A stretch of 35,177 nt of DNA from a virus (lineage: Duplodnaviria > Heunggongvirae > Uroviricota > Caudoviricetes), in the IMG/VR virus record IMGVR_UViG_2576861193_000006. One strand, written 5' to 3'. Position numbers and translations under genes: made by a program. This document shows positions 32,268 to 32,744 of the stretch, one piece after another. Position 1 is the first letter of the stretch. Each line of letters opens with the position of its first letter. The notes under the pieces were generated by a model, which saw only the letters and a program-made list of their open reading frames with translations, was not told the DNA's origin and did not search any database.

Positions 32268-32339
32268 TATTATTTACTCATGTTCTAACTGATTTAATAT
32301 TTATATCGAACACTGATAATTATTCTGTTGGTTAGCTAT

Positions 32340-32678
32340 ATGAACAAAACGATTTTATTCTGCACGATTATTGCCTTAACAGGATGTAAATCTTTGGATT
32401 ACGTAAAATCCGGCAAGCCTGTAATGGAAGGTAATTCATTAAAAAATATTGATGAATTGTCAGGCTGCATATCCAGACAATGGGCTGGTAATGGAACACC
32501 TATAACATCCATTCCTATTGAGAATGGGGTAAGCCTTTTAGTTCCACAGGCTATGGGTGGGTATGATGTTGTGCTTGATATCAAAAAAGCAGGAAATGGC
32601 AGTAGTTTTACTCTTTATGAACGCGTACCAGCATTAACGCCAAAAATTTTTGCTGATAGTGTTAATGCATGTAAATAA
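32340..32678 (+). CDS. lipoprotein (moron) between I and J, 112 aa, unknown function
   Basis: Signal peptide with lipobox IIALTG-C; AT-rich island 32268-32700 between conserved tail genes; own downstream terminator. Confidence 0.75.
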   Translation: MNKTILFCTIIALTGCKSLDYVKSGKPVMEGNSLKNIDELSGCISRQWAGNGTPITSIPIENGVSLLVPQAMGGYDVVLDIKKAGNGSSFTLYERVPALTPKIFADSVNACK

Positions 32679-32701
32679 TAGTTAATCCTGCCGTAACTCA
32701 T

Positions 32702-32730
32702 GAGCCGCCTTTTGGGCGGCTTTGTTGTTT
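32702..32730 (+). terminator. rho-independent terminator after the lipoprotein gene
   Basis: GCCGCC-TTTTG-GGCGGC followed by TTTGTTGTTT. Confidence 0.6.
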
Positions 32731-32744
32731 ATGGAGTGTGAGGA

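Follow-up and report, generated by a model that had tools for sequence, protein, structure and literature searches.

A prophage envelope-lipoprotein moron of the PHROG 914 family lies between tail genes I and J and is carried independently of the J receptor-binding type

Moron genes for envelope proteins are a main route by which temperate phages alter the phage sensitivity and the fitness of their hosts. Here we analysed a small lipoprotein gene located between tail genes I and J in a stretch of 35,177 nucleotides (nt) from a virus of the Caudoviricetes (IMG/VR record IMGVR_UViG_2576861193_000006); the whole stretch is called the window below. An earlier note, made from the letters of the window alone, had described the gene as an AT-rich insertion with its own strong terminator. 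It proposed that the product may be an undescribed lipoprotein which masks the phage receptor and is matched to this J allele. The features of the locus, all on the + strand, are as follows.

31626..32267, +: tail assembly gene I, an open reading frame (ORF) of 213 amino acids (aa); its DNA is 87% identical to lambda up to 32263, and it is named 'tail assembly protein' in matching RefSeq prophages.
32268..32700, +: AT-rich inserted island (moron DNA) not found in lambda, recognised from the drop in GC content, the break in the lambda alignment and its patchy presence in E. coli.
32273..32301, +: promoter-like match TTTACT-17-AATATT, doubtful; 8/12 matches, the best of our own scan.
32340..32678, +: prolipoprotein gene, 112 aa, PHROG 914, stop codon included; ORF with a full-length profile match.
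32340..32387, +: signal peptide (residues 1-15) and lipobox L-T-G-C; the Cys16 codon is at 32385-32387 and the +2 residue is Lys.
32702..32732, +: GC-rich hairpin with a T-rich tail, an ancestral terminator-like element between I and J; dG -21.6, z -4.15; an equivalent exists in lambda.
32745..35177, +: gene J (host specificity, central tail fibre), first ~811 codons; 98% identity to J of the CB9615 prophage over the N-terminal 400 aa (tblastn).

The TAA stop codon of I (32265-32267) and the ATG of J (32745) are separated by a spacer of 477 base pairs (bp). We aligned the K-I-J-lom region of lambda to the window and found that the corresponding I-J spacer of lambda is 60 bp long and gene-free, in agreement with the statement of the earlier note that lambda has no gene at this position. 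The DNA on either side of the island is 87-95% identical to lambda. The alignment stops at window position 32263 (lambda 15440) and restarts at 32714 (lambda 15474), which lies within the hairpin. Because the hairpin in which the homology restarts is also present in lambda, the inserted DNA was placed at about 32268-32700. The GC content is 0.345-0.40 over 32200-32700, compared with 0.55-0.62 in K, I and J. These results confirmed the AT-rich extra DNA between I and J. The island is thus extra DNA relative to a collinear relative and deviates in base composition, as a moron in the sense of Juhala and Hendrix does. J runs off the end of the window at 35177, and its receptor-binding C-terminus falls beyond it. 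Among the complete genomes, the closest match over the island and J together was 97% identical.

The gene encodes a prolipoprotein that starts with MNKTILFCTIIALTG and continues from the lipobox cysteine with CKSLDYVKSG. Its N-terminus has a short basic segment (MNK), a hydrophobic core (TILFCTIIA) and then the lipobox L13-T14-G15-C16, which fits the pattern [LVI][ASTVI][GAS]C. The 112-aa lipoprotein with an LTG-C lipobox was therefore read correctly by the earlier note, as the ORF at 32340-32678, C16 and the Lys at +2 show. The protein matched the profile of PHROG 914, a family listed with 'unknown function', over the full length of both (residues 1-112 on profile positions 1-118 of 118; expectation value, E, 5.7e-33). 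A word-indexed protein search gave 15 close relatives in Escherichia, Enterobacter and Jejubacter, with no named product, and full-length relatives at 47-61% identity share 35 conserved positions. A HMMER profile search of 1.84 billion representatives extended the family to 116 half-identity clusters, nearly all of 105-125 aa with a lipobox. In an alignment of 44 sequences, reaching down to 17-30% identity, C16, C43 and C111 were the sole invariant residues, and the three-cysteine pattern was seen in most of the 116 clusters (C43 about 27 residues past the lipid-bearing cysteine, C111 penultimate).

The +2 residue among 111 members was Ala in 53, Ser in 19, Thr in 13 and Lys in 8, and never Asp. 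According to the Lol sorting rule, Asp at +2 causes Lol avoidance and other residues lead to the outer membrane, so sorting to the outer membrane was inferred from this absence of Asp. The prolipoprotein would be exported by Sec, receive lipid on Cys16, be cleaved by signal peptidase II and reach, through Lol, the outer membrane on its periplasmic side. The AlphaFold2 model has a pLDDT of 82, with the core above 90, and the order beta-alpha-beta4-alpha. The mature protein may thus form a compact alpha/beta domain of about 95 residues, probably stapled by a C43-C111 disulfide. Export, Lol sorting and the disulfide are all predictions from conserved sequence features. If exported as the signal peptide and lipobox imply, the protein cannot serve in cytoplasmic tail assembly or in the virion and must act in the cell envelope.

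Several kinds of search were made for a relative of established function. Pfam gave no family for the query at E up to 1, PADLOC models of anti-phage defence gave 0 families at the same limit, and across the Pfam, NCBIfam and PADLOC scans the only match was one to VirB7 at signal-peptide level (E 0.084). A profile search against PDB sequences gave signal-peptide matches only, T5 Llp included. The nearest fold match of the model was Flpp3, and it was weak; the likeness to Flpp3 (DUF3568, Francisella) and to the BamC N-terminal domain amounts to 6-10% sequence identity with scores in the generic-fold range and no Pfam DUF3568 match, and no function is deduced from it. Two identities were considered and rejected. 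An o-spanin of the Rz1 type was rejected because the lysis genes lie at ~15288-16527, far from the island; marginal O_Spanin_T7 matches of 2 of the 44 relatives (E 0.048) are attributed to the signal peptide. A Bor/Iss identity was rejected because neither the query (Pfam, E up to 1) nor any of the 44 relatives matched that family. The homology search and structure prediction that the earlier note had proposed as a check thus found no homologue of established unrelated function and no likeness to known exclusion proteins either. Its word 'undescribed' holds for the function, as none is assigned to the family, but the family itself is already catalogued, both as PHROG 914 and through gp19 of phage phiKO2. 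In the representative library, we also observed that the lipoprotein profile matched the Cys-rich protein P0030 (1047 aa) at five separate places (E 1.7e-10), which might reflect either a repeat protein made of this domain or an artefact of composition.

The ORF is intact in 58 of the 61 full-length island copies among the fetched loci and frameshifted in the other 3. Together with the full-length PHROG 914 match and the conserved relatives, this indicates a real gene rather than a chance ORF. Variation within E. coli consists of 10 synonymous and 6 non-synonymous variable sites, too few for a test of the ratio of non-synonymous to synonymous substitution rates (dN/dS). That the ORF is a decaying and functionless hitch-hiker might be suspected from the 3 frameshifted copies, from several truncated or frameshifted versions in the protein database and from the weak ribosome site. 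We regard this as hardly credible, because the protein is conserved over its full length down to 20-30% identity, neither the lipobox cysteine nor the two other cysteines vary in the 44 sequences and 116 clusters, all but 3 of the 61 copies are intact and the fold is predicted with confidence.

The distribution of the island was then quantified. It was found at 95-100% identity in 337 of 5426 complete E. coli genomes (~6%), always annotated as 'hypothetical protein'. A query made of I, the island and J matched 9,638 places in 4,352 genomes, with an island-containing place in 334 genomes. The island occurred at 349 of the ~9638 lambda-type I-J junctions (~3.6%) and was missing from ~96%; the gene is accessory and not needed to form tails. 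Carrier isolates came from humans, cattle, poultry, dogs and wildlife, and the order in the prophage of the O55:H7 strain CB9615 is K-I-lipoprotein-J-lom-stf-tfa. Megablast of the island against 50,697 phage records gave no match, and tblastn of the protein against the same records found Fraca and LMessi only, at 30-33% identity. A profile search of genome contigs with a narrow alignment gave a single Kluyvera locus. The family is also present in prophages of Enterobacter, Kluyvera, Klebsiella and Serratia. The island is best explained as a horizontally acquired moron in the late (tail) operon of a lambda-like, dusA-integrating E. coli prophage.

The hairpin at 32702-32722 has 9 pairs, a free energy (dG) of -21.6 kcal/mol and z = -4.15 relative to shuffled sequences, and is followed by a T-rich tail. 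Lambda carries an equivalent hairpin at ~15460-15490 (AAACCGCC-TGCG-GGCGGTTT, dG -20.2 kcal/mol), at the same distance to the J ribosome site as in the window. Because lambda has this element at the same position without the gene, the hairpin is an ancestral I-J feature and not specific to the island, and the 'own strong terminator' that the earlier note had assigned to the lipoprotein gene (32702-32730) is better read as part of this junction. The positional conservation upstream of the J ribosome site suggests a functional I-J element independent of the lipoprotein gene. In phiKO2, a putative terminator is annotated between I and J as well.

No sigma-70 promoter was found on the + strand in a consensus scan. 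The score of the doubtful match TTTACT-17-AATATT was equalled or beaten in 12% of random 130-nt windows of the same sequence, and the Shine-Dalgarno sequence of the lipoprotein gene is poor. An Rfam search of the island gave nothing meaningful. With no convincing promoter, a poor Shine-Dalgarno and an ancestral hairpin, this copy has no demonstrable transcription unit of its own. In two relatives located between K and I (OS31 and the metagenomic phage L085), a strong match to an extended -10 promoter lies about 57 nt before the gene. Q-modified polymerase reads through hairpins in lambda. In the lytic cycle, Q-antiterminated polymerase from the late promoter would transcribe the gene together with the tail genes.

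These expression features bear on the possibility of a purely late lytic role, in which the lipoprotein alters the envelope of the dying cell, for example by keeping progeny off debris or by aiding release, with no benefit to the lysogen. The gene is embedded in the late operon with short spacers, this copy lacks a convincing promoter, hairpins are read through by the Q-modified polymerase, and in one phage the lipoprotein start overlaps the K stop codon (ATGA), which implies translational coupling to K. Even so, protection from debris would need receptor specificity, which the comparison of J types given below opposes; only ~3.6% of lambda-type tail modules have the gene; and a complete lysis cassette is present elsewhere in the window (15288-16527). 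We therefore consider a purely lytic role quite unlikely.

Relatives of the protein were found at different positions, which are listed here.

K-I junction: phiKO2 gp19, Hendrixvirinae Fraca, LMessi, OS31, a Kluyvera prophage and several metagenomic phages; once overlapping the K stop.
Junction of chaperone T and tape-measure gene: a protein 50% identical, in HK97-like prophages of Enterobacter.
Downstream of a cI-like repressor gene by about 400 bp, in the same orientation: one distant member (L096).
Contig resembling a plasmid: one distant member.
Chromosomal surroundings of an ordinary kind: Shimwellia (yidB-lipoprotein-ecotin) and a further genome.

The member of the Enterobacter prophages L081-L084 (7001-7342 of L081, 50% identical) lies between the T and tape-measure genes. 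A non-prophage member, 38% identical, was found at 5001-5339 of locus L087, within the 4.16-Mb chromosome CP001560.1, which we take to be that of Shimwellia blattae. It stands between a yidB-like gene and ecotin, with copC, copD and yebY in the same neighbourhood. Fraca has a separately annotated cor gene downstream of J besides its family member. These varied positions mark the family as a mobile small lipoprotein that has been captured repeatedly, mainly at permissive junctions of siphophage tail operons.

Some further observations were made at these loci. In L096, the distant member (4001-4342) is located in the early region of a prophage, beyond a cI-like HTH_3 repressor gene, and the same prophage carries a bAvd and reverse-transcriptase pair resembling a diversity-generating retroelement. 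The slot downstream of a prophage repressor is typical for protective genes expressed in the lysogen. In the metagenomic phages L085 (420-4939) and L086 (1197-4939), K and the lipoprotein gene are separated by a cassette, inserted within the tail operon, of Arc-like repressors and antirepressor-type genes (Bro-N, KilA-N, ANT, pRha). A second small unannotated ORF lies between K and the family member both in Fraca (L002 5725-5994, 90 aa) and in LMessi (L003 5647-5994), so that LMessi, like Fraca, has two extra genes at the K-I junction.

The frequent position next to K raises the possibility that the lipoprotein acts in the periplasm to inhibit, or to give immunity to, the NlpC/P60 (C40) peptidase domain of K, either from related phages or from the phage itself. 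In the other lineages the commonest site is directly downstream of K, whose product has JAB and NlpC/P60 domains, and one of these copies is translationally coupled to it; the Shimwellia member adjoins the gene of the protease inhibitor ecotin; and independence from the J type would be expected of such an inhibitor. K, however, is believed to work in the cytoplasm while the tail is assembled, and it is not known to be a cell-wall hydrolase of the virion. The fold searches showed no likeness to peptidase or lysozyme inhibitors, and the sites between I and J and between T and the tape-measure gene (H) are not adjacent to K. An inhibitor of K is thus highly improbable.

To relate the lipoprotein to the receptor-binding end of J, we compared 36 complete J genes located downstream of a lipoprotein at least 98% identical to that of the window, taken from 69 IMG/VR loci and from RefSeq loci. 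Over its first 800 residues, J is 94-99% identical among the 36 and reaches 96-98% identity with lambda J. For the last 150 residues, at least four types (A-D) were distinguished. Type A ends with ...SSSGANNWTPT..., type B with ...LEFSVSAWLVNNWYPT... and type C with ...TLEFKVFHKGNQ..., and type D, which is unrelated to the others, ends with ...VRMGRLF. Over these 150 residues, identity is 16-63% between types and 21-43% between the types and lambda. The lipoprotein allele carried by the window (I58) was seen together with J types A, B and C, and the L58 allele with all four. Conversely, the sequenced phages with type A, B or C at 95% identity or more numbered 44, 53 and 44, respectively; most were Shiga toxin (Stx) phages, and none carries the lipoprotein gene. 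Because one allele pairs with several J types, the linkage of the gene is to I and the 5' part of J, which are its physical neighbours, and does not extend to the receptor-binding module. In the prophage of E. coli CUVET18-1475 (L077 9778-11553), I, the island and the 5' end of J all match the window at 100% identity; there, J is a truncated pseudogene without its C-terminus, joined to a different tail-fibre gene, and the lipoprotein gene is intact.

The proposal of the earlier note, a receptor-masking lipoprotein matched to this J allele, can be put as a lipoprotein that masks the receptor of the prophage's own J, as Llp does on FhuA and Cor in phi80 and N15, and that has co-evolved with the J allele. 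For this idea speak the position directly upstream of J and the predicted location in the outer membrane facing the periplasm, which Llp is described to share. It is also supported by precedent: the mEpimmI Lpp lipoproteins (Lpp021, Lpp010), encoded in the structural (tail) gene clusters of temperate coliphages, exclude phages experimentally according to receptor use (PMC11893012). The matching to this J allele did not hold up, since a protein at least 98% identical, including the identical allele, goes with four J C-terminal types that are 16-63% identical, and types A, B and C frequently occur in phages that lack the gene. In addition, homologues lie at the K-I and T-H junctions, away from J, Fraca has both a family member and a separate cor, and there is no similarity to Llp in sequence or fold. 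Our comparison of sequences thus contradicts a J-matched receptor mask, and receptor masking of this kind is improbable.

We then compared the protein with known systems. phiKO2 gp19 (YP_006599) is a true homologue, reached through the Fraca homologue at 48.6% identity. Like the window protein, it is a lipoprotein of ~112 aa with the same three cysteines, encoded within the tail-tip gene block, and GenBank annotates it as 'putative moron gene product' with its own terminator. The difference is one of position, as gp19 and the Hendrixvirinae copies lie between K and I and the window copy between I and J.

T5 Llp is described as a phage-excluding lipoprotein of the outer membrane that faces the periplasm. 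Llp and Cor (phi80, N15, HK022, mEp167) are likewise small phage-encoded outer-membrane lipoproteins near the gene of a receptor-binding protein. The mature part of the window protein is larger (~96 aa), and it does not co-vary with the receptor-binding domain, as would be expected of receptor-masking lipoproteins (Llp, Cor, Rtp45, mEp Lpp). In the profile search against PDB sequences, Llp (8a60_B) was matched over residues 1-19, the signal peptide, only (E 0.64), and the fold searches with the model gave no Llp-like match. No relationship to Cor was seen, which was examined only indirectly, through the separate cor gene annotated in Fraca. The earlier note had named T5 Llp and the Cor proteins of phi80 and N15 for comparison; within these searches, no homology to them was seen. 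Membership in the mEpimmI Lpp group was rejected as well: mEp021 gp81 has 72 aa, its gene is on the strand opposite to J and downstream of it, and neither the query nor the Fraca homologue matched it by tblastn.

HK97 gp15 is a superinfection-exclusion moron of the inner membrane, encoded between T and the tape-measure gene, which excludes without touching the receptor and has chromosomal relatives (YebO) (PMC3594210). It resembles the window protein in being a small envelope protein from an extra tail-operon gene, and a 50%-identical relative of the window protein sits at the very junction of gp15. Both the gp15 family and PHROG 914 have chromosomal members. The two are nevertheless unrelated in sequence and topology; one is an inner-membrane protein and the other a predicted outer-membrane lipoprotein, and exclusion has been shown for gp15 alone. 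As analogies, the mEp Lpp proteins and T5 Llp may serve as general precedents for excluding lipoproteins, and HK97 gp15 as a positional and conceptual one.

A function that has nothing to do with phages must also be weighed, namely a moron for host fitness or virulence, whose lipoprotein would help the lysogen within an animal host or during envelope stress. Lambda Bor (serum resistance) and Lom (adhesion) are precedents (PMC3594210). The carriers include human, cattle, poultry, dog and wildlife isolates, the chromosomal homologues outside prophages suggest a cellular role, and the top fold match, Flpp3, is an outer-membrane lipoprotein and virulence determinant of Francisella. On the other hand, there is no Bor/Iss homology (no Pfam match), the fold match is weak, and this copy has no evident promoter for expression in the lysogen. 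The strong and repeated association with siphophage tail operons would also be left unexplained. We consider a host-fitness role possible, if doubtful; it has the most weight among the rivals, followed by the late lytic role, the inhibitor of the K C40 domain and the decaying ORF, in this order.

Taken together, the feature is a prophage envelope-lipoprotein moron in an already catalogued family (PHROG 914, phiKO2 gp19). The gene, its lipobox and family, its accessory status, its mobility among junctions and its independence from the J type were all seen directly in the comparisons above. As to function, we favour, with a probability of about 0.4, an envelope-protective moron of the lysogenic-conversion or superinfection-exclusion type that is independent of the receptor. 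For this reading speak the relatives at the gp15 junction and behind a prophage repressor, the strong promoter matches of two K-I relatives, and the tested precedents of mEpimmI Lpp and T5 Llp. The inserted AT-rich accessory lipoprotein gene of the earlier note fits well with the envelope morons of prophages; what has to be dropped from its interpretation is the matching to the J allele. The protein may act at or below the outer membrane, regardless of the receptor recognised by the J of the phage. A possible target would be a conserved step of tail-tip penetration or DNA delivery by siphophages, comparable to what HK97 gp15 acts on from the inner membrane. Both the exclusion activity and the target are speculative.

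A more specific form of the favoured reading is that PHROG 914 constitutes a receptor-independent exclusion class, which blocks tail-tip penetration or DNA delivery of lambda- or HK97-type phages from the periplasmic face of the outer membrane. The blocked step could be, for instance, the emergence of the J, H or K machinery. We regard this form as unlikely. If true, it would explain the repeated capture at three tail-operon junctions and the constancy of the lipoprotein despite J domain swaps, and PHROG 914 would be an outer-membrane counterpart to HK97 gp15. If the protein does not exclude phages, a Bor-like host-fitness role would be indicated.

Several points weigh against the envelope-protective moron. 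No likeness to HK97 gp15, Llp or other exclusion proteins was found by homology or PADLOC model. Because chromosomal, non-phage members exist, the ancestral function was probably not anti-phage. The tail-operon junctions may be merely permissive insertion sites and uninformative on function. Finally, no convincing promoter is seen for this copy and its ribosome site is weak, so that its expression may be limited to late lytic growth.

Two other parts of the window were recorded. Rfam gave gathering-level matches on the + strand to isrK (7186-7262, 67 bits) and to C4 antisense RNA (7287-7374, 83.6 bits). These are antirepressor-control RNAs of the P1/P7 type, and both lie inside a 383-codon ORF (6826-7977); in a prophage nearly identical to this one, RefSeq labels that ORF 'Rha family transcriptional regulator'. 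The ORF may have been over-predicted, or its 5' part may contain the RNAs. A DNA methyltransferase gene (350 aa, 14231-15283, + strand) is located between Q (12695-13075) and the lysis cassette (15288-16527), a place occupied in Stx phages by the toxin genes.

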